A stretch of 64,000 nucleotides of DNA from an uncultured bacterium (GCA_964442615.1 CAYUAG010000001.1:464-64463); one strand, 5' to 3'. Positions 1-51,075 are shown, counted from the first letter of the stretch. Made by a program: numbers and translations. Notes: generated by a model not told the origin, from the letters alone.

Positions 1-2235
1 TACAGGCCATGCTATCAAATTGGCAAGAATAATCCATCGGATTAGTGTGCCGGATAATAATAAGGTCACGCTGCCTGTGGAAGCACCCATAACCTTGCGT
101 ATACCAATCTCCTTTGTTTTGACTTCAGCCATAAATGCCGCCAATCCCAGAATACCCAAAGAAGCGACAAATATGGAGAGCGCTGAGAATATTATAAAGA
201 TGTTCTGCATCTTCCTTTCCCGCTCATAAAGTTGTTGAATGCGTTCATCGAGGAAATTAAATTCAAATTGCTCACCGGGAAATGTGTTCTCCTAGGTGTT
301 CCGGAGGTACGTTAGGGATTCCCGGATATCGCCTGGTTTGACTCGAACTGATATCGTGTTAATCCATTCAAAATTTAATATCAAAGCCATAGGTTCCACT
401 ATCGTATGCATGGACTTGAGGTGAAAATTTTTTACCACACCCACGACCCGGCCTATGTCGCCCCTGCCATACACCAGTTCCTTTCCGACTGCTTCATCGG
501 GTGTCCAGCCAATACGACGTACTGCTGCTTCATTCAATATAAGTGTCCCGGAGGTATCAGAACTGAAATTTCTGGAAAAGGTGCGTCCCTTTTGCATCTC
601 CATCCGGTATGTCTCAACAAAATCGTGATCCGCACCGAGAATAAGCATGCTGATGGTTTCTTCGGAATTCAGTCGAGTCTGAAAACCAGTCGTGCTGAAA
701 AAAGTTTCCCCTGGTACATCTGAAGATCTGGCAACCGAAAGAACCTGTGGATTCTTTAATAATTCAGTACGATAGACTTCATAATTCTGAGCCATTTCTC
801 GGCTTTGAACAGAGACCAGTACAATATTTTCTTTTTCAAAACCTAAAGACCGGTTCTGGATGTATTGCATTTGTCTGTACACTGTAAACATCCCGATAAT
901 TAACGCAATAGAAATGCCGAATTGAATAATCACCATGTTTCTTTTGAAGCCTGATCTTCCTTTACCCGAAACAGGAGTGCCTCGTAAAATATCTGCTGGT
1001 TCGTATCGCGTTAATTGAAAAGCGGGATAGATACCAGCAAGAAAACCAACGATAAGCGTTGTCACGATTAAAATGCAGATATTTTTTATTTGAAACAGAT
1101 AAGAGAGTGATAGACTCTCATGAAAGATTCGTTCATAGGCTGGTATCAGCAGTATATCTAAAACAAGGGCTAACAGTAAGGCAAGGAAGGCTAAAAGCAT
1201 GGATTCCTGAATGAACTGTCCCCTGAGCTGCATGAGCCCCGCACCCACGGTTTTACGCAGACTGACTTCCCTGGCCCGTTTGCTGGACCTGGCTGTTGAG
1301 AGATTCACAAAATTAATGCAGGCGATTATAAGGATGAGTAAAGCAACCGAAGAGAATATATAAACAGATGCTATGTTTCCTCCTGCCTCAATCTCCCAAT
1401 TTTCACTGGGATTAAGATGAATACTGGTAATAGGGAAAAGATTCATCTTCAGCACTTCATGAATACCGAATCCCTGGGCCAATAGATCCCCGTAATGGGC
1501 TTCAAGATGACGAGTGACAAATGTTTTTAATTTACTCTCAAGGCTTGATCTCGAAGTGCCTTTCTGAGCCAGGACATAGGTGTATAGATAGTTACTTCTC
1601 CAACTGGTAAACCTGTCTTCCGGATAGGAAGAAATTGACATCAGCATATCGAAATGGATATGGGAGTTTTCCGGCACCTCTTTCAGAATGCCTGTCACTT
1701 TAAAATCCACTGGTTCTCCATTGAATTCAAGATTGAGGGATTTACCAATAACATTTTCGGTACCCAAAAATTTTAATGCCTTCTCTCGCGTGAGCACCAC
1801 TGTTTTCGGTTCGGTTAGTGCTGTCTGTTCATCACCCTCCTCCAGATCGAAATCGAAAATGTCGAAGATGGCGTTATCCACTGCAAAAAGTTCCTGTCGA
1901 TGATTGAAATTATTTTGATCCTTGATGTTTGTTACTCTTCGCCATACGCGTGTTGCATTTTCAATTTCAGAATAATCATCAATTAATGCCTGTTTGTATT
2001 GTCCACCAACGATAGGCCAACGGCTGTAAACATTATCACGGAACAGTTCCCGTTCAATGCGATAAATCCGTTGAGCATTATTATGGAAGCGGTCATAACT
2101 GGATTCTCTCTGTACCCAGAGACTGATGATGGTACAAATGGCCAGCCCGATAGCCAGACCGAAAAGATTTATGAAAGAAAATAATTTGTTTCTGACGAAA
2201 TGACGATAGGCAATTTTTAAATAATTTTTAAACAT
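1..2235 (-). pseudogene. MacB/FtsX-family ABC transporter permease, interrupted by an in-frame TAG (292..294); the C-terminal end runs off the left edge
   Basis: The 647-aa ORF 292..2235 has the N-terminal TM, MacB-type periplasmic domain and first FtsX TM bundle. It is paralogous to ORF 2751..5144 (both start MFKNYLKIA.R). Hand translation of the minus strand below 292 continues in the same frame: ENTFPGEQFEFNFLDERIQQLYE...KTKEIGIRKVMGAS...IRWIILANLIAWPV. This aligns to the C-terminal FtsX domain of the paralog. Confidence 0.75.
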
Positions 2236-2750: not shown

Positions 2751-5144
2751 TCATTCATACCTCAAACTCTCCACTGGATTGGCCCGGGCGGCTTTAAACG
2801 CTTGATACCAAACGGTCAGTAGAGCAACACACAAAGCGATAAGACCGGAAAGCAGAAAACTCACCACACCAATGTTGACCTGGTAGGCATAAGAGATCAG
2901 TACTTGTTTCATTAGAAAGTAGCCAAGCGGCCAGGCAATAAGGTTAGCAATCAGTACCCAGCGTATAAATTCCTGACTGAGAAGTAAAATTAGCTTTGAT
3001 ACAGGTGCGCCTAATACTTTCCGAACACCTATTTCCTTGGTTCTTCGCTCTATCATGAAAGATGACAGTCCGAAAAGTCCCAGGCAGGATATGACAATAG
3101 CCAACAGTGTAAAGGTGTTAAAAATCTGGCTGGCCTTCACTTCTTTGGCATACAGCTGGTCGTAGGTTTCATCCACAAAGTGAAACTCAAAAGGCGAAAT
3201 GGGATTAACGGATTTCCACACGTTTCTAACAGCAGCGATACCCTTAGTGATTTTTCCGGATTGTATTCTAATCAGCACGATTCCGCCACTGGTGGCATGG
3301 GACATGTCTGTTATAAAAAAGATCCTGTTATTGATTTTTTGATGGAGTGATTGAAAATTGGCATCCTTAGCTATCCCAATGATTTTCGTAAGGCGGTCAT
3401 CGGAAAGTTTAAACCATTTCCCCAGGGGTGATTCCAGTCCCATGTCCCGGATTGCTGATTGGTTCAGGATCACACTCTCTCTGGCATCCGAGGATATCTC
3501 TTCTGAGAAAGTTCGACCCTCTACAATATCGAGTCCAAGTGTCTTGAAAAAATCATACCCCACACCTGAAAGTACTAGATCGAGATGACGCTCCCGTTTT
3601 GGATCTCTGCCTTCCCATTCCCAGCCCGCTCCTCTCCAGGTATCTGTTAAACCCATGTATTGGGCAGATACAGAAACGATCTCAGGATGGGTGAGCAGTT
3701 CATTTTTCATGGTTTTGTATTGAGTGCCCACATTCTCCTTAATAGGCAGATAAATGACATTTTTTTTGTTGAATCCCAGGTTTTGGTTTTGAATATAATG
3801 AAATTGTTTATAGATGATCAAGGTTCCGAAAATGAGTAGGATGGATATAGCGAATTGAAAAACAACCAATATTTTCCGGAATAGAGATCCACGCTTATCG
3901 GATAATTGAGAGCCCCGAAATAAAACCAGAGGCTTAAATCCCGAGAGAAAAAAAGCGGGATAACATCCTGAGAGAAGTCCAGTTATAATAATTATAACTG
4001 CAAAACCTGTCAGAAAAGAAATATCGAGAGGATTTATTCTGAGTGATTTATCAGCCAGTTGATTGAAATAGGGGAGCAAAACCATGACCAGACCTAAAGC
4101 AATCAAACCGGCAATGAGTGTGAAAACCATTGATTCAGCAAAAAATTGCCGTACCAATTGAATACGATGGGCTCCTATAGTTTTTCTCATGCCAATTTCT
4201 TTTGATCGGAGAGCGGATCGGGCCGTAGACAGATTCATGAAATTTACACACGCAATGGCCAATACAAAACCGGCAATCACAGAGAACAGTAATACCATCT
4301 TTCGGTCACCTAAAATGCGCCATTGGATATTCCAATCCCGGGCAGTTAAATACACGTCCGACAGCGGTTGAAGCCAAAATGTAAGCCCCTTGGATATCTG
4401 CCAGCACTCATTACGTTTGCCGATTTCGGTCATTTTTTTTCCAAGTAATTGAAGGTCGCTGTTCTCCCAGAGGAGCACATAAGTGGTAAAGTTGAAAGCA
4501 TTCCAGGAGGTACCATAATTATAGGTCCATTCACCCATGTCCTCCATGAATGTAAAGGAACTCACAAAGTCAAATTGCAGGTGTGAATTTCTGGGGATAT
4601 CCTGAATCACACCGGTTATGGTAACCGGACGTCCCTCAACCAGTATTGTCTTACCCATGGGATCTTCATTTCCAAAATATTTACACCCAAAGGATTCCGT
4701 GATGACCATATCCGCAGGATTCTGAAAGGCTGATTCCAAATCACCTTTGATGAAGGGAAAAGTGAAAATCTCAAACAGGGATGGATCGGCCATAATGCCT
4801 TTTTCTTCATAAAAACGGGTATCCTTATATTTAAATACTAGTCGTGCATGGGAGGCAACCCGAGCCGCATGGACAATTTCAGGGAGTTCTTTTTGCATTG
4901 CGGGAGCCAGCGGTGCCGGGGTGATTTCCAGACCCTCCCATCCATTCCTCTTCCAGTCGCTCACCACGCGATAGATGTGATCTTTTTTTTCATGGAATTG
5001 ATCAAAGCTAAGTTCGTCTTGAACCCAGATTAGGATAAAGATACAGACAGCTATTCCTACTCCCAAACCCAGGATATTGATAAAGGAATAGCCTTTGTGC
5101 CGCAGGAGGTTTCTTAAAGCAATTTTCAGATAATTTTTGAACAT
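2751..5144 (-). CDS. MacB/FtsX-family ABC transporter permease (797 aa)
   Basis: Full-length ORF with N-terminal TM, a large periplasmic domain and two FtsX-type TM bundles. It has the RTKEIGVRKVLGA and earlier SKEIGMRKTIGA motifs typical of MacB-like permeases. Confidence 0.9.
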   Translation of the reverse strand: MFKNYLKIALRNLLRHKGYSFINILGLGVGIAVCIFILIWVQDELSFDQFHEKKDHIYRVVSDWKRNGWEGLEITPAPLAPAMQKELPEIVHAARVASHARLVFKYKDTRFYEEKGIMADPSLFEIFTFPFIKGDLESAFQNPADMVITESFGCKYFGNEDPMGKTILVEGRPVTITGVIQDIPRNSHLQFDFVSSFTFMEDMGEWTYNYGTSWNAFNFTTYVLLWENSDLQLLGKKMTEIGKRNECWQISKGLTFWLQPLSDVYLTARDWNIQWRILGDRKMVLLFSVIAGFVLAIACVNFMNLSTARSALRSKEIGMRKTIGAHRIQLVRQFFAESMVFTLIAGLIALGLVMVLLPYFNQLADKSLRINPLDISFLTGFAVIIIITGLLSGCYPAFFLSGFKPLVLFRGSQLSDKRGSLFRKILVVFQFAISILLIFGTLIIYKQFHYIQNQNLGFNKKNVIYLPIKENVGTQYKTMKNELLTHPEIVSVSAQYMGLTDTWRGAGWEWEGRDPKRERHLDLVLSGVGYDFFKTLGLDIVEGRTFSEEISSDARESVILNQSAIRDMGLESPLGKWFKLSDDRLTKIIGIAKDANFQSLHQKINNRIFFITDMSHATSGGIVLIRIQSGKITKGIAAVRNVWKSVNPISPFEFHFVDETYDQLYAKEVKASQIFNTFTLLAIVISCLGLFGLSSFMIERRTKEIGVRKVLGAPVSKLILLLSQEFIRWVLIANLIAWPLGYFLMKQVLISYAYQVNIGVVSFLLSGLIALCVALLTVWYQAFKAARANPVESLRYE

Positions 5145-5279: not shown

Positions 5280-5951
5280 TCATTCCTCCTTCTCAATCCA
5301 CCCATCCTTCAAATGGATAATCCGGTTTCCATATTTTGCTTTTTCCTCGGAATGGGTAACCTGGAGGATGGTCATGCCTTCCTCTTTGTTTAATTTTTTT
5401 AAAAGCTCCATAATTTCTTTTCCCTGCTGGGAGTTAAGATTCCCGGTAGGCTCATCCGCCAGTAAAAGGTTTGGCCGGATAATCAAGGCCCGGGCTACAG
5501 CAGTCAACTGCTGCTGACCTCCAGAGAGCTGATTAGGGAAGAGATTTTTTTTAGCAACAATATTGAATCGGTCCAGCACCTCTGCTACCAATCCTTTTCT
5601 TTCCGAAGTTTTAACTTTTTTATATAACAGAGGAGTCTCCAGATTTTCATATACGGTCATCTCATCAATAAGATGGTACTGCTGAAAAATGAATCCTATA
5701 TGCTGATGATGAAGACCGGTTCGCTGTTTTTCTTTTAAGGAATGGACAGGCTCATCAAAAAAATAGTATTCACCTTCTGAGGCAGTATCCAGCATACCCA
5801 GAATATATAAAAGTGTTGATTTTCCTGCACCTGACGGACCCATTATAGTGATAAACTCACCTTCCTTAATATCCAGATTGATTTGTCGTAAAACAAAGGT
5901 TTTAATAAATTTATTAGAATAATATTTGGTAATATCTCTTAATTTAATCAT
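5280..5951 (-). CDS. ABC transporter ATP-binding protein (MacB/LolD-like)
   Basis: Walker A GPSGAGKST, signature LSGGQQQ, Walker [14 protein letters not shown]-loop VTHS. Confidence 0.95.
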   Translation of the reverse strand: MIKLRDITKYYSNKFIKTFVLRQINLDIKEGEFITIMGPSGAGKSTLLYILGMLDTASEGEYYFFDEPVHSLKEKQRTGLHHQHIGFIFQQYHLIDEMTVYENLETPLLYKKVKTSERKGLVAEVLDRFNIVAKKNLFPNQLSGGQQQLTAVARALIIRPNLLLADEPTGNLNSQQGKEIMELLKKLNKEEGMTILQVTHSEEKAKYGNRIIHLKDGWIEKEE

Positions 5952-5966
5952 CTTTTACCTCAATTT

Positions 5967-6185
5967 TTATTTTTTTGATGTTACTTTAAATAAAACAGCT
6001 CCCAGATATCCAGATTCGTTTATTTCAGCTATGTATAAACCAGGTTGATAGTGAGCTTTTGTTTTTAATTTTGTTTCTGATAGAGTATTTAATAGACTTG
6101 CAGGTGTAAAAGAACCCTCAGTACTGCTTAACAGTAATCTTTGATGGTTTTTTACAAGTCCGGTTAATACATTTTTTAAGGTCAT
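5967..6185 (-). CDS. Hypothetical small protein (72 aa)
   Basis: ORF preceded on the minus strand by AAAGGAGaaatcaccATG. It ends 15 nt before the next ATPase gene. No family recognised. Confidence 0.4.
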   Translation of the reverse strand: MTLKNVLTGLVKNHQRLLLSSTEGSFTPASLLNTLSETKLKTKAHYQPGLYIAEINESGYLGAVLFKVTSKK

Positions 6186-6370: not shown

Positions 6371-7060
6371 TTATACATGAAATTTATCTTTGAAATTCTC
6401 AGTTACAATATGCCCATCAAAAAGATGAATCAATCTTTGGGCATAATCTGCATAGGCTGGTGAGTGGGTTACCATAAGAATCGTAGTTCCTTCTTTATGA
6501 AGATCAGTTACCAATTTCATAACTTCTTCTCCATGGGAGGAATCCAGGTTTCCGGTCGGTTCATCAGCAAGTATAAGTTTGGGGTCGCTGACAATTGCTC
6601 TGCTTACCGCTACCCGTTGCTGCTGTCCCCCGGAGAGCTGCTGAGGAAAGTGGCTTCTTCGGTGCATCATTTTCATTCTTTCTAGGACATTATGTACTTT
6701 TTTCTTTCTTTCTGAAGCTGAAACTCCAAGATAGAGAAGAGGAAGTTCAACATTTTCATACACAGTGAGTTCATCGATGAGGTTAAAACTCTGGAATACA
6801 AATCCGATGTTGTTTTTCCTCAGATTGGCCCGTTTTCTCTCATTATATCCGGATATTTCCTCTCCCAGAAAATGGTATTCCCCTTCTGTCGGATTGTCCA
6901 GCATTCCCAACACATTCAGAAGTGTGGATTTGCCGCATCCCGAGGGTCCCATAATGGATACAAATTCGCCCTCTTTGATCTCAAGATTCACATTATTCAA
7001 AGCAGTTGTTTCTACTTCTTCAGTCAGGTATACTTTTTTTAAGTTTTTGGTTTTAATCAT
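6371..7060 (-). CDS. ABC transporter ATP-binding protein (MacB/LolD-like), paralog of 5280..5951
   Basis: Walker [10 protein letters not shown], signature LSGGQQQR, Walker [13 protein letters not shown]-loop VTHS. Confidence 0.95.
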
Positions 7061-7132: not shown

Positions 7133-7611
7133 GTCAAATGTCAAACGTGAGAAAAAACCGTAACACCTCATTATATAGTACTTTTTATTAGTTTTGAAAG
7201 TGAAGCAAAAAGATGATTCATTTGTTTACTAATTTTATCTAAATCTTCCTGTCTACAATAGGTTAAATCAAGTGCAATTTCTAATTGTGTATCCAGTTCC
7301 GCTAATGATGATCTTGAAATTTCATAAAACCTTCTCCGTTCATTGCTGGAACTTCTTGCTGAGCCCTCTGCGATATTCGAAGGAATGGAAACAGCGCTTC
7401 TCCTGATTTGTGAAATTAAATTGTACATTTCTTTTGTTGGAAATTTTTCAGTTAATTCATATATTTTTATGACAAACTCCATTGCTAACTTCCAAACCTT
7501 TAATTTTTTATGTTTTAATTCGAGCATCTCATCTCCTGTAAAAACATTTTTCTGTTTTTGTTTATATACTTGCTGTCTTTTACCACTCACTTCTCACATC
7601 TCACATTTGAC
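7133..7611 (-). repeat. Inverted-repeat stem (arms 7133..7157 and 7587..7611) enclosing the four-helix-bundle ORF
   Basis: Hand alignment of gtcaaatgtcaaacgtgagaaaaaa against the reverse complement of 7587..7611 (gtcaaatgtgagatgtgagaagtga) covers 25 positions. There are 19 Watson-Crick pairs and 2 mismatches. The other 4 positions are U.G/G.U only on the minus strand. Confidence 0.6.
7171..7527 (-). CDS. Four-helix-bundle protein (23S rRNA intervening-sequence protein / Avd-like family)
   Basis: The motif KFPTKEMYNLISQIRRSAVSIPSNIAEGSARSSSNERRRFYEISRSSLAELDTQLEIA is characteristic of this family. The start is placed at MLELKHKKLKVW (7527), which has AGGAGAtgagATG upstream. The track's longer ORF (to 7590) would read through the repeat arm. 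Confidence 0.8.
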   Translation of the reverse strand: MLELKHKKLKVWKLAMEFVIKIYELTEKFPTKEMYNLISQIRRSAVSIPSNIAEGSARSSSNERRRFYEISRSSLAELDTQLEIALDLTYCRQEDLDKISKQMNHLFASLSKLIKSTI

Positions 7612-7614
7612 CTT

Positions 7615-8865
7615 TTACTTCAAAATCAACTTATCAACATCCCCGAAAGTGTCATAAGAAGAGGTGATAACTTTATCACCAGGTTTCAGTCCTTCCAAAA
7701 CAGTAAATACTTCCGGGTTTTTCCGCCCTAGCCGGAGGGGATGTTTTACAGCAAATGATTCTGATTCATCCAGAATGTATACCCATTGACCTCCTGTAGT
7801 TTGGTAAAATCCCCCTTGAGGAAGAAGAATTGCTTCTTCTAGATTCCCAAGTTCAAGTCGAATATGTAAAGTTTGACCTCTGCGAATTCCTTCAGCTAAT
7901 TCGTTTAGAAAAACCAGATCAACATCAAAGCGTCCTTCGCTGACTTCTGGAAAAACCTTGTTAACTTTAAGCTTATATGTGTTTCCTGCAAAGGAAAAAC
8001 TTCCGTATTTCCCTTCTTCCACTCTGGCAATGTAGTGCTCATCAATCTCACACCTGACTTTTAAACTGTCAAGTACATCAATACGACCCAGTGATTCTCC
8101 GCGACTTTTGGTAGAGCCAATCTCAGCATCCAGAGATGTAAGCATGCCGTCAATAGGAGTTCGAATGGTTAAAGCTTCCTCTCTTTTTTGAACAATGGTC
8201 AAATTCTTTTCCATTTGTGCAACAGATAATTCCAGCTGTTTTATTTGATTTTCTCTAAACAAGGAGTCCTGTTGCATAGATTCAAGAGTAAGTTCCTTAG
8301 ATTTCAGGGAATATTCATACTCATCTTTTATTAATTCATATTCTTCTTTGGATATAAGATTTTGTTCATAAAGCTTTTGTGCTCTTTTGTATTCTCTTTC
8401 TTGTTTTAGGAGATTAAATTTAATTTCTATGAGTTGTCTTTTAAGCAGTAATTTATTTTGTTCCATATAAAGACGAGTGGAACGTAAATCATTAGCAGCC
8501 CTGTTCACCTGGGCTTGATTGTTTAATATGGTCAGAAGTAGATTTGTATTGGACATTCTTACAATGGGATCACCTTTTTTCACCGATGTACCTGCTTCGA
8601 TAATTCTTTCTTCCACTACACCTCCTTCCGTGGCGCTCAGAGTATATCTTTTAATAGGAACAACTGTACCCTGAGTTGGAATATATTCCTGGAATTCGCC
8701 TTTATAAACGGTTGATATAGTAATTCTTTCAGTATTTATATTATATTTAGAACTTTTATCTCCAAATATAATCATATAGAGAATCAAGAGAAAAAATGCG
8801 GAGGGTATGACGACCTTTGCTATGTTTTTTAAGGTAAACCGTTTTTTTTCAATTTTTTTATCCAT
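7615..8865 (-). CDS. HlyD-family periplasmic adaptor (membrane fusion protein) of the ABC efflux system
   Basis: N-terminal TM anchor, long coiled-coil segment (QLELSVAQMEKNL...), then barrel-sandwich and beta-barrel regions. It is the first gene of the operon with the ABC ATPases and MacB-like permeases. Confidence 0.85.
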   Translation of the reverse strand: MDKKIEKKRFTLKNIAKVVIPSAFFLLILYMIIFGDKSSKYNINTERITISTVYKGEFQEYIPTQGTVVPIKRYTLSATEGGVVEERIIEAGTSVKKGDPIVRMSNTNLLLTILNNQAQVNRAANDLRSTRLYMEQNKLLLKRQLIEIKFNLLKQEREYKRAQKLYEQNLISKEEYELIKDEYEYSLKSKELTLESMQQDSLFRENQIKQLELSVAQMEKNLTIVQKREEALTIRTPIDGMLTSLDAEIGSTKSRGESLGRIDVLDSLKVRCEIDEHYIARVEEGKYGSFSFAGNTYKLKVNKVFPEVSEGRFDVDLVFLNELAEGIRRGQTLHIRLELGNLEEAILLPQGGFYQTTGGQWVYILDESESFAVKHPLRLGRKNPEVFTVLEGLKPGDKVITSSYDTFGDVDKLILK

Positions 8866-8918: not shown

Positions 8919-8934
8919 CGCAAGAAGCATACCA
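8919..8934 (-). promoter_or_regulatory. Candidate sigma-54 (-24/-12) promoter of the efflux operon
   Basis: The minus strand reads TGGTATGCTTCTTGCG. GG and GC have the canonical TGGCAC-N5-TTGC spacing. It lies about 55-70 nt upstream of the HlyD start codon and faces away from a sigma-54 activator gene. Confidence 0.6.
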
Positions 8935-8970: not shown

Positions 8971-9026
8971 CACCAACTTTAATAATGTGTGCGCTGACAT
9001 TACAGTTGGTGTACGTATTCGTACAC
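8971..9026. promoter_or_regulatory. Palindromic sites, candidate enhancer (UAS) for the sigma-54 activator
   Basis: caccaact (8971..8978) and agttggtg (9004..9011) form a perfect 8-bp inverted repeat. gtgtacg-tatt-cgtacac (9009..9026) is a perfect 7-bp inverted repeat. Both lie about 40-110 nt upstream of the -24/-12 element. Confidence 0.4.
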
Positions 9027-9178
9027 TTTAATAAGGTTGAAGTAACTTTATGACTTAGTTTTCAGAGGAACATAGTATTGCAGAATTATCGGTACAATGA
9101 TTGCTATAAAGTAGTTGAATTTGTTGATTACAGAGTGTATCTTTTAATATAGTTTCATAAAAAATGGATAACTAGTTA

Positions 9179-10555
9179 ATGAGTGAAAAGATTGGTAAAA
9201 TTCTTTTTATCGATGATAATGAGGATATACTGCAGGCTGCTCGGCTCTTTTTAAGACAGCATATGGCTGTTGTCCATACTGAGAAGAATCCAGAAATGAT
9301 TCCTTCCCTACTTAAACATGAGGATTATGATGTCATATTACTGGACATGAATTTTACTCAGGATGTTACCAGCGGTAAAGAGGGTTTTCTGTGGCTGGAG
9401 AAGATACTTGAAATTGATCCCTGGGCAGTTGTTGTTATGATAACAGCCTATGGAGATGTTGAGATGGCTGTACGTGCCATTAAAGCTGGAGCAATAGATT
9501 TTGTCTTGAAACCTTGGCACAATGAAAAGCTGCTTGCAACTATCTCAGCAGCTGTGAAATTAAGGCATTCCCGTACCGAACTTGATAGTCTACGTTCTCT
9601 TCAAAAACAATTGAGCGCAGACATGGATCAACCTTTCCATGATTTCATTGGCCAAAGTCCAGCTATGGAAGATGTATTTAAAACCATAAGAAAAGTAGCA
9701 AAAACAGATGCCAATGTTCTTATTCTGGGAGAAAATGGAACTGGCAAGGAGTTGGTTGCCAGGGCACTCCACCGGGAATCAAAACGGTGTAATAAAGTAT
9801 TTATCAGTGTGGATATGGGAGCTATTAGTGAAACTTTGTTTGAAAGTGAACTATTTGGTCATGTAAAGGGTGCTTTTACTGATGCCAAGTCAGATAGGGC
9901 TGGTCGTTTTGAAGTAGCCTCTGGGGGCACTCTTTTTCTTGATGAAATTGGAAATCTATCCAAGACTCTTCAAAGTAAACTTCTTACTGTATTGGAAAAC
10001 AGAAAAGTAATACGGTTGGGTTCACATAAACCAATTTCAATTGATATACGTCTTGTTTGTGCTACTAATAAATCCATTAGTGAAATGGTTACCAGGCAGG
10101 AGTTCAGACAGGATTTGCTGTATCGGATAAATACAGTGGAAATAAATCTACCCCCACTTCGTCACCGGAGAGAGGATATTCTACTGCTTGCAGAACATTT
10201 TTTAAAGATTTACTGCGAAAAGTATGATATGCTACCCAAAAAAATAAATAGTGAGACAAGAAGAAAAATGGAACAATATAAATGGCCTGGAAATGTAAGG
10301 GAACTGCAGCATGCTATTGAAAGAGCAGTTATAATGAGTGAGAATAAGACCTTGAAACCCTCTGATATCCTGCTTTCTATACCCAACAGTAAGAGTGAGG
10401 AATTATCTCTGGATAACTTAAAAATTGAAGAGATTGAGAAATTAGCTATTCAAAGATCGATTAAAAAATACAAAGGCAACATTTCAAGAGCTGCCAAGGA
10501 ATTAGGATTGACCAGGATTTCTCTCTATCGTAGACTGGAGAAATATGGAATATAA
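9179..10555 (+). CDS. Sigma-54-dependent response regulator (NtrC family: REC, AAA+, Fis-type HTH)
   Basis: REC domain (DDNEDIL...LLDMNF), Walker A GENGTGKE, GAFTDA (a GAFTGA variant), ESELFGH, and C-terminal HTH ISRAAKELGLTRISLYRRLEKYGI. Confidence 0.95.
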   Translation: MSEKIGKILFIDDNEDILQAARLFLRQHMAVVHTEKNPEMIPSLLKHEDYDVILLDMNFTQDVTSGKEGFLWLEKILEIDPWAVVVMITAYGDVEMAVRAIKAGAIDFVLKPWHNEKLLATISAAVKLRHSRTELDSLRSLQKQLSADMDQPFHDFIGQSPAMEDVFKTIRKVAKTDANVLILGENGTGKELVARALHRESKRCNKVFISVDMGAISETLFESELFGHVKGAFTDAKSDRAGRFEVASGGTLFLDEIGNLSKTLQSKLLTVLENRKVIRLGSHKPISIDIRLVCATNKSISEMVTRQEFRQDLLYRINTVEINLPPLRHRREDILLLAEHFLKIYCEKYDMLPKKINSETRRKMEQYKWPGNVRELQHAIERAVIMSENKTLKPSDILLSIPNSKSEELSLDNLKIEEIEKLAIQRSIKKYKGNISRAAKELGLTRISLYRRLEKYGI

Positions 10556-11942
10556 ATATTTTAAAACATTTTTAGTCATACGGGTACTCAGCCTTTGTCT
10601 TTTTATTTGGATATTTTTTTTATTACTTTTCAAAACAGGGAATTATATATTTGTTGGTTTAATTGGATTTTTAATTTTTTACCAAACCTATAGCCTTATC
10701 CATTATGTAGAAAAGACAAATAGAGAGCTCGCCCGTTTTCTGGATGCCATACGATATGAAGATTTTTCCTGTTCTTTTAAGCAAAGTGGAAAAAAATCAA
10801 CATTCAATATACTTTCTCGAGCGTTCTCAGGTATTATTGATGAAATAAAGAGATACCGAACTAAAACAGAAGAGCATTACCAATATTTACAAACAGTAGT
10901 TCAGCATATCGGTATAGGTATTATTTCTTTTCAGCAGGATGGAAAAGTAGGATTTATTAATAGTGCAGCTTTAAAACTGTTAGGCTTAAGCAAATTGAAA
11001 AATATTCATGATCTCAAAGAGTTAGAACCCAGCTTTACAGATATTCTTATTAAGTTAGAAAATGGTGAACACATACTTGTTCCGCTTTATATCGCTTCAA
11101 AAAATTTTTTGTTTTCAATTCATACCACCAAATTCCGCATGCAGGGAAAAAAGATAACATTAATATCAATACAAGATATAAAAATACAGTTAGAACAGGA
11201 ACGCGCAGCCAAGGAACTGGAGGTTGCTCATCAGGTACAAACTGAACTCTTGCCTAAAGATCATCCTAATATCCCTAATATTGATATAGCTGGATTCTGT
11301 AAGCCCGCTCAGGAAATAGGGGGTGACTATTATGATTATATTTCAATTGATTCTGATAAAATTGGTATTGTCATTGCCGATGTTTCAGGAAAAGGGCTCC
11401 CTGCTGCAATCTACATGACTTTAACCAAAGGTATTCTTCAATCAAAAGCAGAGGAAATTAGCTCACCTAAAGCTGTGTTAACAAAAGTCAATAGATTGCT
11501 TTATCAATCACTATGGCGTGATTCTTTTGTTACCATGTTTTATGGTGTGCTTAATGTAAAAAATAACAAGTTTATCTATGCCCGAGCAGGTCATAATCCT
11601 CCCATCCATCTAAACAGTAAAAATGATTCATTCTCATTTCTGGAATCAAAAGGAATTGCTTTAGGTTTGACAGATGAAAGAGAGTTCACAAAAACAATTG
11701 AAGAAAAACAGTGCGATTTAAATTCAAATGATTTGATTGTTTTGTATACGGATGGTTTTACTGAAGCAATGGATAAGAATAGTAATGTATTTGGGGAAAA
11801 AAGATTGTTTGATTTAATTTTAAATAACCGGGATAAAACCTGTGAAGAATTGATAAAAATTATTTACAAGGAAGTCAGTCTATTCACCGGGGAATATCTT
11901 GAACATGATGATATGACCATGGTCTCAGTTAAAATAGCTTAA
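10545..11942 (+). CDS. Membrane sensor with C-terminal PP2C/SpoIIE-type serine phosphatase domain
   Basis: Two N-terminal TM helices and a PAS-like region, then GGDYYDY...IADVSGKGLPAAIYM...YTDGFTEA...HDDMTMV. The start overlaps the regulator's stop by 11 nt. Confidence 0.85.
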   Translation: MEYKYFKTFLVIRVLSLCLFIWIFFLLLFKTGNYIFVGLIGFLIFYQTYSLIHYVEKTNRELARFLDAIRYEDFSCSFKQSGKKSTFNILSRAFSGIIDEIKRYRTKTEEHYQYLQTVVQHIGIGIISFQQDGKVGFINSAALKLLGLSKLKNIHDLKELEPSFTDILIKLENGEHILVPLYIASKNFLFSIHTTKFRMQGKKITLISIQDIKIQLEQERAAKELEVAHQVQTELLPKDHPNIPNIDIAGFCKPAQEIGGDYYDYISIDSDKIGIVIADVSGKGLPAAIYMTLTKGILQSKAEEISSPKAVLTKVNRLLYQSLWRDSFVTMFYGVLNVKNNKFIYARAGHNPPIHLNSKNDSFSFLESKGIALGLTDEREFTKTIEEKQCDLNSNDLIVLYTDGFTEAMDKNSNVFGEKRLFDLILNNRDKTCEELIKIIYKEVSLFTGEYLEHDDMTMVSVKIA

Positions 11943-11951
11943 TTAGTATAT

Positions 11952-13304
11952 ATGATTTTTAAAAAATTTCAAATTAATTGTATTTTAAGAGTTTTAATTT
12001 TATCCCTTAGCATATTTTTGTTTGTATATTTAGTTTTTCAGGTAAATCAATATCTGATAGCTGTGTTTGTTGGCAGTATCATTTTGTATCAAATATATTC
12101 TCTTATCCGTTACATTGAAAAAACTAACTATTATCTGATACGATTTTTTGAAGCTGTCAAATATGAAGATTTTTCTCAATCTTTTTCAGGACTGGGTTTA
12201 GGGAAATCATTCGATGAATTGAAAAGATCTTTTAAAGATGTTTTGGAGAAATTTCAACAAACACGTATGGAAAAAGAGGAGCATTTCCGCCGCCTTCAGA
12301 TTGTACTCAATCATATAGGAACAGGATTGCTTTCTTTTCAGGAGGATGGTAGAGTAGATTTGATAAACAATGCTGCTAAACGGTTGTTTCATATGCCACA
12401 TCTGAGGAATATATGTGACCTGTTTACTTTAAGCGAAGATCTCGTTAAGACCTTGATGAATTCGAAACCTGGGGATAAAACCCTGATTAAAGTACATAAT
12501 AAGGATGAGGTGCTCAATTTAAATATTTATTCCACCGAGTTCATACTGAGTAAGAAGTGCTATAAGTTAATTTCCATCCAGAATATTCAAAGTGAATTGG
12601 AAGAGAAGGAAATGGAAGCCTGGCAGAACCTGATCAGGGTACTCACCCATGAAATTATGAATTCAGTAACACCCATTTCCTCTCTGGCCTCAACTGTTAA
12701 TAGTATGTTGATTCAACAATCAGAGAATATACCTAGTAATCAAAATAAATCTATTTCAATAGAAGATATTCAAGCAGCTGTCCAGACTATTGAAAAACGA
12801 AGTGAGGGACTCATTCAGTTTGTGAAGTCGTATAGAAAATTGACACACATCCCTAAACCCGATTTTCAGATTATCTCAGTTTTCTCTTTATTTAAACGTA
12901 TTGAACAGCTTATGGGAACTGATATCAAGAAAAATAGAATACAGTTTATTAAACAAATAAATCCTGAAACTCTTGAACTAACAGCAGACCCGGCTCTTAT
13001 AGAACAGAGTCTAATCAACTTGATGATTAATTCTATGGATGCTCTACACACTGTTAACAAGCCGAAAATCACGCTTAATGCTCAATTAGATGGTAGAAGC
13101 CGAACTATTATTCAAGTCATAGACAATGGCCCTGGAATAGATCCCAATGTTCAAGACCGCATCTTTATTCCTTTCTTTACAACTAAGAAAAAAGGTTCAG
13201 GAATAGGTTTAAGTCTATGCCGTCAGATTATGCGTATACACAAAGGAACTATCAGCATTGATTCAAAACCCAATAGTGCAACCATGATTACTTTAAGATT
13301 TTAA
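11952..13304 (+). CDS. Sensor histidine kinase (2TM, PAS-like, HisKA, HATPase_c)
   Basis: H-box LTHEIMNSVTPI, N-box LINLMINSMDA, G1 DNGPGI, G2 GSGIGLSL. The N-terminal ~200 aa are paralogous to the preceding PP2C sensor. Confidence 0.9.
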   Translation: MIFKKFQINCILRVLILSLSIFLFVYLVFQVNQYLIAVFVGSIILYQIYSLIRYIEKTNYYLIRFFEAVKYEDFSQSFSGLGLGKSFDELKRSFKDVLEKFQQTRMEKEEHFRRLQIVLNHIGTGLLSFQEDGRVDLINNAAKRLFHMPHLRNICDLFTLSEDLVKTLMNSKPGDKTLIKVHNKDEVLNLNIYSTEFILSKKCYKLISIQNIQSELEEKEMEAWQNLIRVLTHEIMNSVTPISSLASTVNSMLIQQSENIPSNQNKSISIEDIQAAVQTIEKRSEGLIQFVKSYRKLTHIPKPDFQIISVFSLFKRIEQLMGTDIKKNRIQFIKQINPETLELTADPALIEQSLINLMINSMDALHTVNKPKITLNAQLDGRSRTIIQVIDNGPGIDPNVQDRIFIPFFTTKKKGSGIGLSLCRQIMRIHKGTISIDSKPNSATMITLRF

Positions 13305-18485: not shown

Positions 18486-19334
18486 ATGGCAAAGAAAAAA
18501 GATGATCGAGCCCAACAAACACTTGATCAGTATTTTAAAGAAATTGGTGAAGTATCTTTACTGAAGCCTGAAGAAGAGATTGAACTAACCAAACGTATTA
18601 AGAAAAATGACCAAAAGGCTATGGAAAAATTGGTCCAGGCAAATCTTCGTTTTGTGGTTAGTGTGGCAAAAGAGTATCAACATCAGGGACTTTTTCTGAG
18701 TGATTTAATAAGTGAGGGAAATATTGGTTTGATTAAAGCTGCTAAACGATTTGATGAAACCAGAGGATTTAAATTTATTTCTTATGCAGTTTGGTGGATA
18801 CGTCAATCTATACTACAGTCTCTTGCAGAACATTCAAGAGTTGTAAGACTTCCTTTAAATAAAGTTGGAGTATTAAATAAAATTGGGCGTGTACATGAAA
18901 AGCTGGAAAAAAAATTAGAAAGAAAACCCAATACTCAGGAAGTGGCTGAATTTATGGAAATGAATGGACGTGATGTGTATGAGACTTTAAAAATGTCAGG
19001 CAGACATCTTTCTCTTGAAGCTCCACTTAATGAGGAGGATGGTAACAGATTGGTAGATGTTCTTCAAAACAGTGGACAACCTTTACCTGATGATGTTTTA
19101 AATAGTGATTCATTAAAAATTGAGATAGAAGATGTGTTAAATACTCTTTCTGAAAAAGAGGCAAAAGTCATAAAACTTTATTATGGACTTGAAGGTGAGA
19201 GACCGTTAACTCTGGAAGAGATAGGAGAGGTTTTTAATTTGACCAGGGAGAGGGTCAGACAAATAAAAAAGAAGGCGATTCGCAGGCTTCGACATGCTTC
19301 CCGAAGTCAGTATTTACGAAAATATCTTGATTAA
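18486..19334 (+). CDS. rpoD: RNA polymerase sigma-70 family factor, RpoD/SigA-like (short FCB type)
   Basis: Regions 1.2 to 4 are recognisable: LVQANLRFVVSVAKEY, EGNIGLIKAAKRFD, FISYAVWWIRQSI, LTLEEIGEVFNLTRERVRQIKKKAIRRLR. Confidence 0.8.
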   Translation: MAKKKDDRAQQTLDQYFKEIGEVSLLKPEEEIELTKRIKKNDQKAMEKLVQANLRFVVSVAKEYQHQGLFLSDLISEGNIGLIKAAKRFDETRGFKFISYAVWWIRQSILQSLAEHSRVVRLPLNKVGVLNKIGRVHEKLEKKLERKPNTQEVAEFMEMNGRDVYETLKMSGRHLSLEAPLNEEDGNRLVDVLQNSGQPLPDDVLNSDSLKIEIEDVLNTLSEKEAKVIKLYYGLEGERPLTLEEIGEVFNLTRERVRQIKKKAIRRLRHASRSQYLRKYLD

Positions 19335-25336: not shown

Positions 25337-25398
25337 AAAAGATTGGAATGGGTATTTTGTTTGAGTTATTTATTATCAAAGAAAAAGGAGTTGAGAAA

Positions 25399-28300
25399 AT
25401 GAAAAAAATAGTAAATATTTTTACAATCATTACATTAGTTTTGACAGCGGGTTGCTTATTTGCTCAGCAGGTTACAATTAGTGGTTCTGTAATAGATGCA
25501 ACAACAGGTGAGCCTCTTTCATTTGCTAATGTATCAGTAGAAGGAAAACAAGTAGGTGCTGCTACAGATGAAGATGGATATTTTGCATTTACTATGTCCT
25601 TGACTGAAGAGGTTAAATTAATAGTAAGTTATATGGGTTATAAAAAGCAGGAGCTTATTTTACAGCCTGGAGATCCGCGTTTGACTACAGATCTTTTATT
25701 TGAACTGGAACCCGATGTAATTGGACTTGAGAAGATAGTAGTTACAGCCTTGGGTATAACCAAAGAAGAGAAAGCCATAGGATATGCCCAGCAATCAATA
25801 GGATCTGATGAATTGACAGAAGTAGGCGAACCAAATATTGTAAGTAATTTATCCGGGAAGGCAGCTGGAGTGCAAGTTATAAATTCTACAGGTACAATAG
25901 GTTCTTCCGCCAGAATACAGATCCGTGGGATTAGTTCATTAACCGGGGATAACCAGCCCTTGTTTGTGGTTGATGGAGTACCTATTGATAATACCTCCAG
26001 AAATATTGGCCCATATGGTCAATCAGTTGATTTCGGAAATGCTGCTGCAGATATAAGTCCTAATGATATCAAAAGCATAAACATATTAAAAGGTGCAAAT
26101 GCTGCTGCTTTGTATGGTAGCAGAGCTCTTAATGGGGTAGTAGAAATTACAACTAAAACTGGAAAAGGTGCTGGTTTAATACAGAAAAGAGGTCTTGGAA
26201 TTTCTTATACTAATCATCTTACTTTCAGGGTGTATAATCCTATATATAAATTTCAGGATAAATACGGACAAGGCTCTTGGTTTGATTTTACCTATGGAGA
26301 CGGTAATGGCGGAGGCTATTATGATAATGTAGATGAAAGCTATGGACCCCCCTTAGACGGATATCGGTCTGATGAGTACCAAGAATTGTATGGTGATCAT
26401 CCTTATATCCAGATTCAGGGACCAGGAGAACCTCTACTTGTTCCCCAATTTGATTCACCACTTCCGGATGGAACTATAGATCCTAGTGTTAACAGTTTAG
26501 AGCGTACACCAACTCCCTGGATATCTCATCCTGACAATGTTAAGAATTTTTTCGAAACCGGATTTTCCCATCAACATAATGTTTCTGTTTACGGAGGAAG
26601 TCGGGGAGCAAATTTCCGTATTTCTTATACCTATCAAGATGATAAGGGAATAATTCCCAATACCGATCGGTTAAGAAATTCAATATATCTAAGTGGTAAT
26701 ATACAGGTAAATCCAAAGCTGTCTATATCAGGTGTAGCGAATTATATAAATACTGCAAGTGATAATCTAAGTGGTAATGGATATTCTACCACTAGTCCCA
26801 TGCAGCAGTTTACCAGCTGGTTTGGTCGCCAGGTAGATCTTTCCTGGCTTAAAGATAATCTTGAATCCCCTGATGGTACTCCCTATAGATGGAATTATTC
26901 ATATCATGATAATCCTTACTGGACTGCGTATAAAAATACAAATTCAATGTACAGGCACCGGATATTTGGTCATATTGATGTAGATTATAAATTTAACGAT
27001 TGGATAAGTTTAACTGCTCGAGGCGGCACCGACGTTTACACAGAAAATAGAAAATATATAAGAGCAAAATTTTCCAATGACTTTCCAGATGGACGATTGA
27101 ATGATAACAATGACGTTACCAGAGAAACTAACTTTGATGTATTTGTAAGAGCAAATCGATCCCTTACTGACGATATTTCTGTAAATGCTCTGGTTGGGGC
27201 AAATTACAGGTCAAATCGTTATACATACCAGCAGACATATGTTGATGGATTGATCATTCCTGACTTATACGCAGTTAGCAATGCCAGTGTAACGCCTACT
27301 ACTGATACATATTTGCAAGAATCAGTACATAATAGTATCTACGGACGCCTTTCTGCTGGATACAAAGATTATCTCTTTCTGGAGGCTACTGGAAGAAATG
27401 ATTGGTCTTCTTGCCTGCCTGAAGATAATAGAACTTATTTTTATCCATCTGTAACTACTTCTTTTCTTTTTTCCGAATTTTTTGATATAGATCCAAAAGA
27501 TTTATTTGGAAAAATAAGAGCAAGCTGGGCAAAAGTAGGTAACACAGCTAATCCATATTCATTAATTACTACCTATTATTCTCAGGAAACGTTTATGGGT
27601 AAAGCAAATTTATCTTATGCCAATACCATGGCCAATGCAGACTTAAAGCCTGAAGAGAAGACCAGTATTGAATTAGGAACTGATTTGAAATTCTATAATA
27701 ATCGTGTTGGTTTATCTTTTACCTGGTATAAAGAAAACACCATAAATCAGATTATGGATGTTTCTGTTTCAGGAGCCAGTGGCTTTACCAGAAAATGGAT
27801 CAATGCTGGAGAAATTCAAAATACAGGTATCGAAATATTATTACATGGCACTCCTTTAGAAAAAGAAAAATTCAGATGGGATATTGATGTTAACTGGGCT
27901 CAAAATAACAATGAAGTAATTAAACTGTATGGAGATGTTAAATCTCTGGAACTCTGGCGGGCTGCCTGGGATCTAAAAGTTCTTGCCCGGGAAGGGGAAC
28001 CATGGGGCCAGTTATATGGATGGCCAACAACAATGCATAAGGGTAAACCAGTTGTTTATTCTACTGGTTATTATGCAGGTTGTGGACAGACAACTGGTAT
28101 TCCAGAAGTGTTGGGTAATGTTATACCGGATTGGACAGGCGGAGTCAGAAATACTTTTCGATATGGGGATTTTTCTCTCAGCGCTCTTATAGATATGAGC
28201 ATGGGTGGAGATGTTTTTAGTATAACTAATAATTTTGGATGGGAAGCAGGAACCTTGATTGAGTCAGTAGAGGGTTATGATTATAAAAATGGAAATAAGA

Positions 28301-28719
28301 CTTATAAAGCCACACCAGTAACTGGTAATGATATGAGAATAGATGGTGTGCTTGTCGATGGGTATAAATTGCAAGACGATGGTTCCTATGTAAAGAATGA
28401 TATTGTTGCTGATTACAGAGCCTGGGCTTGGGCCTTTTGGCCGTCTGTAGGAGGTCATGATTTATCCATATTCGATGCTAGCTGGGTAAAATTGCGCAGT
28501 GTGATTCTATCCTATCGAATTCCTAAAAAATTTGTATCAAGATTTGGCTTAATGGGTGCAACAGTCAGCCTTGAAGGCAGGAATCTGCTTATTCTTTACA
28601 AAAATGTTCCCAATATAGATCCTGAAACATCCTATTCCGCAAGTATTGTACAGGGTATTGAGATGAATCAATTACCAAATACCAGAATATTTGGTATGGG
28701 TCTTAAGCTTGATCTATAA
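25399..28719 (+). CDS. SusC/RagA-family TonB-dependent outer-membrane transporter
   Basis: Start placed at MKKIVNIF (SD AAAGGAG 8 nt upstream). Signal peptide, CarboxypepD_reg-like domain (VTISGSVIDATTGEPLSFANVSVEG), plug (NILKGANAAALYGSRALNGVVEITTK) and a large barrel. Confidence 0.9.
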   Translation: MKKIVNIFTIITLVLTAGCLFAQQVTISGSVIDATTGEPLSFANVSVEGKQVGAATDEDGYFAFTMSLTEEVKLIVSYMGYKKQELILQPGDPRLTTDLLFELEPDVIGLEKIVVTALGITKEEKAIGYAQQSIGSDELTEVGEPNIVSNLSGKAAGVQVINSTGTIGSSARIQIRGISSLTGDNQPLFVVDGVPIDNTSRNIGPYGQSVDFGNAAADISPNDIKSINILKGANAAALYGSRALNGVVEITTKTGKGAGLIQKRGLGISYTNHLTFRVYNPIYKFQDKYGQGSWFDFTYGDGNGGGYYDNVDESYGPPLDGYRSDEYQELYGDHPYIQIQGPGEPLLVPQFDSPLPDGTIDPSVNSLERTPTPWISHPDNVKNFFETGFSHQHNVSVYGGSRGANFRISYTYQDDKGIIPNTDRLRNSIYLSGNIQVNPKLSISGVANYINTASDNLSGNGYSTTSPMQQFTSWFGRQVDLSWLKDNLESPDGTPYRWNYSYHDNPYWTAYKNTNSMYRHRIFGHIDVDYKFNDWISLTARGGTDVYTENRKYIRAKFSNDFPDGRLNDNNDVTRETNFDVFVRANRSLTDDISVNALVGANYRSNRYTYQQTYVDGLIIPDLYAVSNASVTPTTDTYLQESVHNSIYGRLSAGYKDYLFLEATGRNDWSSCLPEDNRTYFYPSVTTSFLFSEFFDIDPKDLFGKIRASWAKVGNTANPYSLITTYYSQETFMGKANLSYANTMANADLKPEEKTSIELGTDLKFYNNRVGLSFTWYKENTINQIMDVSVSGASGFTRKWINAGEIQNTGIEILLHGTPLEKEKFRWDIDVNWAQNNNEVIKLYGDVKSLELWRAAWDLKVLAREGEPWGQLYGWPTTMHKGKPVVYSTGYYAGCGQTTGIPEVLGNVIPDWTGGVRNTFRYGDFSLSALIDMSMGGDVFSITNNFGWEAGTLIESVEGYDYKNGNKTYKATPVTGNDMRIDGVLVDGYKLQDDGSYVKNDIVADYRAWAWAFWPSVGGHDLSIFDASWVKLRSVILSYRIPKKFVSRFGLMGATVSLEGRNLLILYKNVPNIDPETSYSASIVQGIEMNQLPNTRIFGMGLKLDL

Positions 28720-28768
28720 ATGAGTACAATAAAAAAGTATAATCTGAAATAATGAAAGGGAGTAGACA

Positions 28769-50759: not shown

Positions 50760-51074
50760 ATGAATAAGAAAGTATTTATTATAAATATAATCATTTTTCT
50801 GCTATTTTGTAGTTGTTCCTTATTTAAGACTGATAATACAAACTCAGCAATTAAGGGTAGAGTTTATATTACTGGAAATGAACCTTTTACCCGCCTTGCC
50901 TTGGAAGATAAAAAAGGGAGAATTTTTTATCTTACCTGTGATGAGAAGGTGAAAAAGGAACTTTGGAAATTTCAGGGTAAAGCAGTATTGATTTATTATA
51001 CCGAAATTCTAAGAAATAAAGCTGGAAAATTTATTAAAGTAATTAAATATGAGCTTATTGATAAGGAGAAATAA
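50760..51074 (+). CDS. Small lipoprotein (104 aa), uncharacterised
   Basis: Lipobox LLFCSC. It ends 1 nt before the metalloprotease start codon. Confidence 0.5.
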   Translation: MNKKVFIINIIIFLLFCSCSLFKTDNTNSAIKGRVYITGNEPFTRLALEDKKGRIFYLTCDEKVKKELWKFQGKAVLIYYTEILRNKAGKFIKVIKYELIDKEK

Positions 51075-51075
51075 G

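Follow-up and report, generated by a model that had tools for sequence, protein, structure and literature searches.

A sensor module common to a PP2C phosphatase and a histidine kinase in a sigma-54 circuit beside a MacB/FtsX-type exporter

We analysed a stretch of 64,000 nucleotides (nt) from an uncultured bacterium (GCA_964442615.1 CAYUAG010000001.1:464-64463), hereafter the window, in which three plus-strand open reading frames (ORFs) encode an NtrC-family sigma-54 activator (9179-10555, 458 amino acids, aa), a PP2C-type serine phosphatase (10545-11942, 465 aa) and a histidine kinase (11952-13304, 450 aa). An initial annotation of this DNA had described the phosphatase and the kinase as membrane sensors with paralogous N-terminal regions of about 200 aa, and had suggested that a His-Asp relay and a branch based on Ser/Thr phosphate may both be driven by the same sensed signal. 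Comparisons of sequences and of predicted structures now give good support to the reading that the two proteins have one input design and two outputs. The circuit that they belong to probably serves a divergently transcribed ABC exporter, and the phosphatase may be a second reader of the cue that is sensed by the kinase. The parts of the three genes are as follows.

9179..10555, plus strand: NtrC-family sigma-54 activator, 458 aa (REC with D56, AAA+, HTH_8), from the Pfam matches Response_reg (1e-19) and Sigma54_activat
10545..11198, plus strand: sensor module of the PP2C protein, aa 1-218, from the AlphaFold2 model, PDB profile matches and paralogy
11199..11942, plus strand: PPM phosphatase domain of the RsbU/SpoIIE type (aa 246-465), preceded by a helical linker (aa 213-235), from the Pfam SpoIIE match
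11952..12602, plus strand: the kinase's sensor module, aa 1-217, in which the structural elements follow one another as in the PP2C protein, from the AlphaFold2 model and paralogy
12603..13304, plus strand: kinase core with signalling helix, DHp (H233) and CA domain, from motifs, Pfam and the AlphaFold2 model

One sensor module, two outputs

When the PP2C protein was compared with the kinase by BLASTP with compositional adjustment, the alignment began at residue 1 of both proteins and contained 90/245 identities (37%) and 60% positives (E=1e-49); no second significant segment was found in this comparison. Both peptide pairs that the initial annotation had quoted as examples are present, and its claim of paralogy is borne out. 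The alignment of the sensors is collinear over 217 residues and contains no indels.

AlphaFold2 models of the PP2C protein (mean pLDDT 83, alignment of 113 sequences) and of the kinase (mean pLDDT 78, alignment of 101 sequences) have the same architecture in this region. Both begin with a TM1 (first transmembrane, TM) helix at about residues 2-31, which is followed by a turn of 2-3 residues and a helix at 34-71 that runs from TM2 into the first HAMP-like helix. The connector at 71-84 is poorly predicted yet bears a highly conserved DFSxxF motif, and it leads to a helix at 85-121, a PAS fold at 125-211 and a long helix from residue 213. For the PP2C sensor in particular, we assigned TM1 to residues 3-30, a 3-residue periplasmic loop, TM2 to 34-52, HAMP-like helices to 53-70 and 85-110, and the PAS domain to 112-212. 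Among PDB entries, a profile of the sensor module matched WalK, DcuS and CitA in their cytoplasmic PAS domains, and the PP2C protein has a weak Pfam PAS_8 match at residues 114-154. The two models are equivalent position by position through residue 211 and diverge beyond it: after the linker helix comes the PPM domain (246-464) in the phosphatase, and DHp (213-257, 270-298) and CA (306-449) in the kinase. As modelled, the module consists of two TM helices, a HAMP-like region and a PAS domain, with no periplasmic domain; its earlier description as 2TM-PAS was right in both of the parts named and lacked the HAMP-like region. The outputs are exchanged at the helical linker (signalling helix) that comes straight after the PAS domain.

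We then compared the constraints on the two kinds of sensor by aligning 111 PP2C-type and 119 kinase-type homologues jointly over their first 245 residues. Within residues 1-217, 41 positions reach 85% conservation or more in each of the two families, with identical residue and numbering. Not one position before residue 220 is conserved but different between the PP2C-type and kinase-type sensors, and all 7 positions of that kind lie at or after residue 221, past the exchange point. These 41 common conserved positions, with none that is specific to one family, suggest that the same constraints act on both sensor families; "one input design, two outputs" is a well-supported description at the level of sequence, and the idea that one kind of signal feeds the two branches fits the absence of family-specific conserved residues. 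Within a genome the PP2C and kinase sensors are 44% identical, compared with 42 +/- 5% between genomes, and we saw no sign of gene conversion, concerted evolution or pairwise co-evolution of the two sensors within genomes. An exhaustive search of 1.84 billion representatives with the sensor profile gave 891 proteins at E<=1e-30. We classified the best 150 of 3169 matches (cluster representatives), among which the full-length outputs were 97 kinases and 11 PP2C proteins, with no third type of output.

The predicted outputs are those that had been annotated, a SpoIIE/PP2C phosphatase in the first protein and a kinase core (H-box with H233, HATPase_c) in the second. In the PP2C protein, Pfam SpoIIE (PF07228) matches residues 270-464 at 7e-46, with 157 bits against a cut-off of 25. 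The PPM domain is nearest in sequence and fold to Pseudomonas aeruginosa RssB, Rv1364c (RsbU domain), SpoIIE and SiaA, which are also the best Foldseek matches (E about 1e-13). Its metal-binding aspartates D261 (GGDYYD), D279 (DVSGKG), D403 (TDG) and D455/D456 are invariant in 113 homologous sequences, which points to selection for phosphatase activity, and judged by these residues the domain is catalytically intact. The protein belongs to a family of full-length homologues of ~465 aa with 40-80% identity, whose named sources are Ignavibacteriales, Calditrichia, KSB1, Aminicenantes and Acidobacteriota.

These data leave a negligible chance that the N-terminal likeness reflects generic TM/PAS composition or that the PP2C gene is a decaying, functionless duplicate. 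Only the low-complexity, hydrophobic first 50 residues speak for such an explanation. Generic composition is ruled out by the E-value of 1e-49, the 41 common positions and the collinear alignment free of indels, and decay, or a pseudo-phosphatase of the Escherichia coli RssB kind, by a full-length family that spans phyla and keeps its catalytic motifs.

The window contains a second gene for a protein with a SpoIIE/PP2C domain (49495-50691, plus strand, 398 aa, SpoIIE 3.5e-40), the N-terminal 200 residues of which have no Pfam match. A 104-aa ORF without any match lies downstream of it (50760-51074, plus strand), and no STAS-like partner was detected beside this second gene, the next ORF included. 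The genome hence has more than one RsbU-type phosphatase.

The two-component pair and the divergent exporter operon

In the regulator, Pfam recognises Response_reg (1e-19), Sigma54_activat (PF00158, 3e-68), AAA_lid_14 and HTH_8, in agreement with its annotation as a sigma-54 activator in the same operon. The phospho-acceptor motif ILLD56MN is conserved in related loci and the Walker A motif reads GENGTGKE. The sigma-54 contact loop (residues 231-236) is GAFTDA where the canonical form is GAFTGA, and it is the same in 10/10 loci, with or without a PP2C gene. The kinase matches HATPase_c (PF02518) at 1.5e-19. A Pfam HisKA match was not reported for it; its H-box, THEIMNSVTP with H233, is invariant in 101 homologues, and the further boxes are NLMINS (N box) at 356, DNGPGI at 391, FIPFF at 405 and GSGIGL at 415.

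Residues 116-449 of the kinase align to the NCBIfam AtoS, ZraS and NtrB-type models with scores under their cut-offs, and the equivalog cut-offs are missed widely by both proteins (AtoC 379 vs 714, NtrX 297 vs 600, AtoS 135 vs 646). By these scores the pair is not an equivalog of AtoS/AtoC, ZraS/ZraR or NtrY/NtrX, which are alike in combining a REC-AAA+-HTH_8 activator with a TM-(HAMP)-PAS-DHp-CA kinase and give the best NCBIfam alignments; homologous kinases carry the name 'NtrY' at JGI. The present locus departs from those systems in its apparent target, an ABC exporter, and in its inserted PP2C paralogue.

The regulator gene is divergent from an operon on the minus strand that begins with an adaptor gene. 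The intergenic region contains the following elements.

8920..8934, minus strand: sigma-54-type -24/-12 promoter element TGGTATGCTTCTTGC, 53 nt before the adaptor ATG, from comparison of loci
8988..9026, minus strand: putative enhancer (upstream activating sequence), a perfect palindrome at 9009-9026 and a second site at 8988-9004, from comparison of loci
9090..9104, plus strand: weak, tentative candidate for a second GG-N10-GC element, CGGTACAATGATTGC, at 73 nt upstream of the regulator ATG

The palindrome, GTGTACG-AATA-CGTACAC, lies ~90 nt upstream of the -24/-12 promoter in the window, and an imperfect TGT...ACA site follows it at 8988-9004. Read toward the adaptor gene, all nine loci that were examined first have a palindrome and a GG-N10-(G/T)C element in this intergenic region. 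The palindrome core GTNCG-N4-CGNAC occurs a single time in the 64-kb window, against a background of 15 matches in 1.1 Mb of unrelated loci. When we extended the comparison to loci with divergent adaptor and regulator genes, TGG[CT]A[CT]-N5-TTG was present in 45/47, mostly in the textbook form TGGCACATTTATTGC, and the palindrome core in 38/47, nearly always 87-92 nt upstream of the -24 element. This signature of an enhancer and a sigma-54 promoter implies that the pump operon is the regulator's target, and we infer that the regulator controls the divergent ABC exporter. Sigma-54 promoters have been reported, in a computational study, to be enriched upstream of FtsX-type ABC permeases (PMC12316311). 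The plus-strand element at 9090-9104 is TGGTATAATGATTGCA at the equivalent site of the 80%-identical relative L090 (L numbers denote our loci) and is not present in all loci; on this weak evidence it could, tentatively, permit autoregulation of the regulator gene. A scan for sigma-70 promoters and terminators across the operon gave nothing above chance. Between the regulator gene and the enhancer, L001 (6169-6369, minus strand) and L004 have a conserved ORF of ~66 aa with two CxxC pairs (zinc-ribbon-like), which the window does not have.

The exporter operon itself consists of these genes, listed from its first to its distal member.

7615..8865, minus strand: first gene of the operon, for a periplasmic adaptor (membrane-fusion protein), from Pfam HlyD_D23 and HlyD_3
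7171..7590, minus strand: '23S rRNA IVP'/Avd-like four-helix-bundle gene within the operon, from Pfam PF05635 (7e-38)
6371..7060, minus strand: second ABC ATPase, from Pfam ABC_tran (3e-37), 77% identical to its L001 counterpart
5280..5951, minus strand: MacB/LolD/DevA-like ABC ATPase, from NCBIfam DarD (2e-74) and LolD (7e-61), both under their cut-offs
2751..5144, minus strand: duplicated MacB/FtsX-type (ADOP-like) ABC permease, 797 aa, from NCBIfam TIGR03434 ADOP (2.5e-97), under its cut-off
292..2235, minus strand: MacB/FtsX-type ABC permease, distal gene of the exporter operon, from Pfam MacB_PCD (5e-33) and FtsX (6e-16)

The adaptor scores 143.7 with NCBIfam TIGR01730 RND_mfp (cut-off 94.9), and permeases equivalent to the product of 2751..5144 are present in related loci. 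The distal permease has 647 aa with one FtsX domain detected, compared with ~800 aa for the duplicated permeases of relatives, and the 500-bp stretch before it contains a sole, unsupported ORF on the opposite strand (2388-2705, plus); possibly, a second permease has been truncated or frameshifted here. No family match was obtained for a 72-aa ORF (5967-6185, minus strand) that lies between the two ABC ATPase genes. The PF05635 gene stands between the adaptor and ATPase genes in five loci of different lineages (the window, L085, L089, L090 and L091), and in KSB1 (L087) it is placed between the PP2C and kinase genes instead. It may be a functional member of the operon or a recurrent insertion, and a functional tie to the operon is not assured. 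Its coordinates in the relatives are as follows.

PF05635 gene: L085 3088-3570; L089 4607-4966; L090 273-629; L091 7942-8301; L087 3277-3636

Conservation and history of the three-gene form

We surveyed related loci for the arrangement regulator-PP2C-kinase and found it in Ignavibacteriales, Melioribacteraceae, Calditrichia, KSB1 and other metagenome-assembled genomes (MAGs), so that the arrangement is conserved, a point on which the initial annotation had made its proposal depend. The three genes are divergent from an operon for an adaptor, one or more ATPases and one or more MacB/FtsX permeases in Ignavibacteriales CP065001 (L001), in Melioribacteraceae and Ignavibacteria MAGs (L003, L004), in Calditrichia (L085), on a 279-kb JGI contig (L083), in a further MAG (L089) and in L090; in KSB1 (L087) the contig begins at the regulator gene. 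The closest relatives are metagenome contigs (~80% identity), followed by Ignavibacteria and Calditrichia (~45-50%). Two other contexts exist. Aminicenantes (L002, L088) have a full-length orphan PP2C protein with no regulator, kinase or pump nearby, and in L091 the PP2C gene is divergent from the pump operon and its enhancer/promoter, the regulator and kinase genes are not adjacent, and an RsbW-like gene is nearby.

A scan of metagenomes seeded with the sensor gave 80 loci, 69 of which have a regulator-kinase pair and 6 a PP2C gene in between. The divergent adaptor gene is present in 34 of the 45 loci that have more than 2 kb upstream of the regulator, and the Bacteroidota locus L094 contains a complete two-gene form with the pump. 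From these comparisons the common circuit appears to be a regulator-kinase pair divergent from a MacB/FtsX-type exporter operon, and the form with a PP2C gene a conserved minority variant. Another scan of contigs, made with the full-length PP2C alignment and using patterns in the PPM domain, returned mostly unrelated SpoIIE genes, and only L003 and L004 were informative. Nine loci from Ignavibacteria/Bacteroidota MAGs (L032, L036, L038, L042, L045, L055, L058, L071 and L081) have 2-4 tandem SpoIIE-domain genes at a spacing of ~2.6 kb, which encode large multidomain PP2C proteins with no relation to the present sensor.

The junction of the first two genes holds a trace of how the variant arose. 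The start of the PP2C gene overlaps the stop of the regulator gene by 11 nt (10545-10555), an overlap that the initial annotation had pointed out and that is real and kept in related loci. In the PP2C-less loci L094 and L095, it is the kinase gene that begins with ATGGnnTATAG/A and overlaps the regulator's ...EKYG[LIV]* stop by 11 nt, and in PP2C-bearing loci the same overlapping start, ATGGnnTATAA, belongs to the PP2C gene. To judge from these sequences, the overlap is the ancestral regulator/kinase junction, inherited by a PP2C gene that occupies the kinase's slot. The simplest history that we infer is a tandem duplication of the kinase gene, in which the upstream copy kept the junction and would have swapped its DHp-CA part for a PPM domain. 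In a neighbour-joining tree the PP2C-type sensors mostly group together, apart from the sensors of their cognate kinases, and in a tree of the regulators the PP2C-bearing loci are scattered among PP2C-less loci, suggesting one old gain and several losses. Provisionally, then, the PP2C gene would have been gained a single time and, as an accessory gene, lost repeatedly.

Possible role of the phosphatase

PPM phosphatases of the RsbU/SpoIIE type with sensory N-termini normally dephosphorylate STAS-type switch proteins, as is well established (PMC12143880). We searched the ~51 non-overlapping ORFs of the 64-kb window and found no STAS, RsbW-like (HATPase_c_2) or Ser/Thr kinase domain among them, in agreement with the earlier remark that no partner-switching genes are visible; the conserved neighbourhood of 8 related loci contains no STAS or RsbW-like gene either, and none of the conserved neighbours is a Ser/Thr kinase gene. 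We also screened the regulator and the kinase for residues that go with the presence of a PP2C gene. Regulator residue T60, four residues past D56, is Thr in 11/11 PP2C-bearing loci and in 15/61 PP2C-less loci. It was rejected as a PP2C-specific site because Ala60 marks a few large clades on the regulator tree, which makes the pattern phylogenetic. A D96/E96 difference in the kinase is a conservative change, and no Ser/Thr position in either protein is specific to PP2C-bearing loci.

The reading that we prefer, and to which we give about even chances, is that the PP2C protein reads the same cue as the kinase, independently of it, and that its output goes to an unlinked phospho-Ser/Thr switch protein and so couples pump induction to a broader response. 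Such an unlinked substrate is suggested by the substrates usual for the family, by the Aminicenantes orphans and by the apparent repeated loss of the gene from circuits that stay intact, and the orphans mildly disfavour an obligatory target within the operon. The locus would then be a sigma-54 two-component circuit for the divergent tripartite ABC exporter, with an added phosphatase-type reader of the same input. Both sensors, as dimers, would read a membrane-associated or cytoplasmic cue. This cue might report on the exporter's state or load, by analogy with transporter-coupled intramembrane-sensing kinases, and the PAS domain could bind a cytoplasmic ligand. The kinase would set the level of phospho-Asp on the regulator, which would bind the palindrome and open the pump operon's sigma-54 promoter. 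Passed on through the coiled-coil linker, the same cue would switch the PPM dimer, which would dephosphorylate a phospho-Ser/Thr protein encoded outside the locus, most probably an anti-anti-sigma factor of the STAS type or a related switch protein. Induction of the pump might in this way be coupled to a broader response, and the identity of the substrate is the weakest step.

Several points weigh against this picture of a common signal and a remote substrate. Neither in the window nor among the conserved neighbours is a substrate candidate linked to the PP2C gene; L002 does have a STAS gene, at a distance of 4 kb, and an RsbW-like gene occurs once, in L091. That the signal is the same is deduced from common conserved residues, not from any ligand. 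The GAFTDA loop of the regulator departs from the canonical form, and the neighbour-joining trees are weakly resolved. Finally, the tight retention of the PP2C gene between the regulator and kinase genes in multiple phyla could equally mean that the phosphatase acts inside the module.

If it acts inside the module, the PP2C protein might take a Ser/Thr phosphate off the sigma-54 activator, the kinase or a component of the pump. Both outputs would then meet on the expression or activity of the pump, a wiring that we regard as rather unlikely. It would explain why the gene is retained, translationally coupled, between the regulator and kinase genes in several phyla, and why in L091 it stays beside the pump operon and its enhancer/promoter though the regulator and kinase genes are not adjacent; that receiver domains are phosphorylated on Ser/Thr in other bacteria (CovR, WalR) also counts for it. 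However, neither the locus nor the 64-kb window contains a Ser/Thr kinase gene, the regulator and the kinase have no PP2C-specific Ser/Thr site, with T60 following phylogeny, the Aminicenantes copies stand without linkage, and the gene appears to have been lost repeatedly from circuits that otherwise remain intact. In a more elaborate version, which we likewise do not expect to hold, the phosphatase would be an integral third component of the pump circuit: placed with the kinase on the MacB-type permease, it would read the same conformational cue and erase Ser/Thr phosphate on the activator, the kinase or the pump, so that His-Asp and Ser/Thr chemistry converge. If the phosphatase does act within the circuit, this would be an unusual merger of two phosphorylation chemistries.

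Less probable still, and in our estimate improbable, is that the PP2C protein tunes the kinase by association, by forming heterodimers with it or by competing for a shared partner such as the permease, with catalysis secondary. The sensors are collinear and have all family-level conserved residues in common, the TM and HAMP regions included, and the two genes are adjacent and probably co-translated; BceS/BceAB, reportedly a transporter-coupled intramembrane-sensing kinase with its transporter, would be a precedent. Such a role does not account for the catalytic residues that are invariant in 113 sequences or for the existence of orphan PP2C copies, and the sensor pairs within genomes are no more alike than those between genomes.

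Chlamydia RsbU is said to be membrane-anchored, like the PP2C protein described here. The PP2C protein, RsbU of Chlamydia, RsbU and RsbP of Bacillus subtilis and the HAMP-PPM proteins (PMC12143880) are alike in having a PPM domain after a helical linker, an N-terminal PAS or HAMP domain and intact catalytic aspartates. In contrast to such sensor-domain PPMs of partner switching, the phosphatase of the window has no STAS or RsbW gene nearby and no periplasmic domain, and is encoded in a two-component operon beside a kinase with the same sensor. As far as the genes in the window and its neighbours show, the locus is not a partner-switching system. SiaA of the P. aeruginosa SiaABCD network also has a membrane anchor, a HAMP domain and a PP2C domain, and the structure of its PP2C domain (6k4e) ranks with the best matches in fold, at a TM-score of 0.84 when normalised on the target. 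SiaA is encoded with the kinase SiaB, the substrate SiaC and the cyclase SiaD. The PP2C protein differs from it in having a PAS domain, no linked kinase or substrate, and a sigma-54 regulator and a histidine kinase as neighbours.

On the side of the pump, Bce-type modules are similar in what can be predicted from sequence, with two TM helices, a near-absent external loop, no periplasmic sensor and an adjoining FtsX-type ABC transporter that is induced by the kinase. They differ in that the regulator here is of the NtrC-type and sigma-54-dependent, not OmpR-type, the kinase has HAMP and PAS regions, and the pump has an adaptor and duplicated MacB_PCD/FtsX permeases, not a BceB-type permease. 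The sigma-54 promoters described before COG0577-type permease systems in Bacteroidota and other phyla are a further likeness; the available part of that report gives promoter enrichment only and does not contain the enhancer palindrome, the regulator/kinase pair or the PP2C variant (PMC12316311).

All parts of the locus are of kinds already known: the activator is of the NtrC family, the kinase of the HisKA type, the PPM phosphatase of the RsbU/SpoIIE type, and the exporter is a tripartite MacB/FtsX pump. Sensory domains are known to be common to PPM phosphatases, kinases and GGDEF cyclases and to act via crossing helical linkers, with examples in which the domain types are common to proteins of different organisms (PMC12143880). 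In the literature we found no report of this gene arrangement or of a PP2C phosphatase acting on a sigma-54 activator, and no description of adjacent paralogues in one operon that join both outputs to the same sensor module, of the conservation of this arrangement across phyla or of its setting in a sigma-54 pump circuit. The two proteins form a natural matched pair, with the same TM-HAMP-PAS input, the same linker position and a kinase or a PPM output in one operon, and hundreds of orthologous pairs exist. This makes directly testable a recent proposal (PMC12143880), in which a dimeric helical linker allows kinases, PPM phosphatases and cyclases to exchange sensory domains in a modular way. 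The comparison also defines the parts, namely the regulator, the kinase, the enhancer palindrome and the sigma-54 promoter, of a circuit that is widespread in the FCB group and neighbouring phyla and has been uncharacterised; MacB/FtsX-type pumps are candidates for the export of antimicrobials or peptides.

Elsewhere in the window, a gene 5 kb downstream of the kinase gene (18486-19334, plus strand) encodes a sigma-70 family protein of 282 aa with regions 1.2, 2, 3 and 4. Its size matches the short primary sigma factors of the Bacteroidota group, and no link to the PP2C protein was found. The regions 25348-30349, 51049-53343 and 62194-63762 encode a SusC/SusD-like pair and two proteins whose C-terminal sorting domains are of the type IX secretion kind. 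Together with a G+C content of 33%, these genes indicate that the DNA comes from a member of the FCB group (Bacteroidota/Ignavibacteriota-like).

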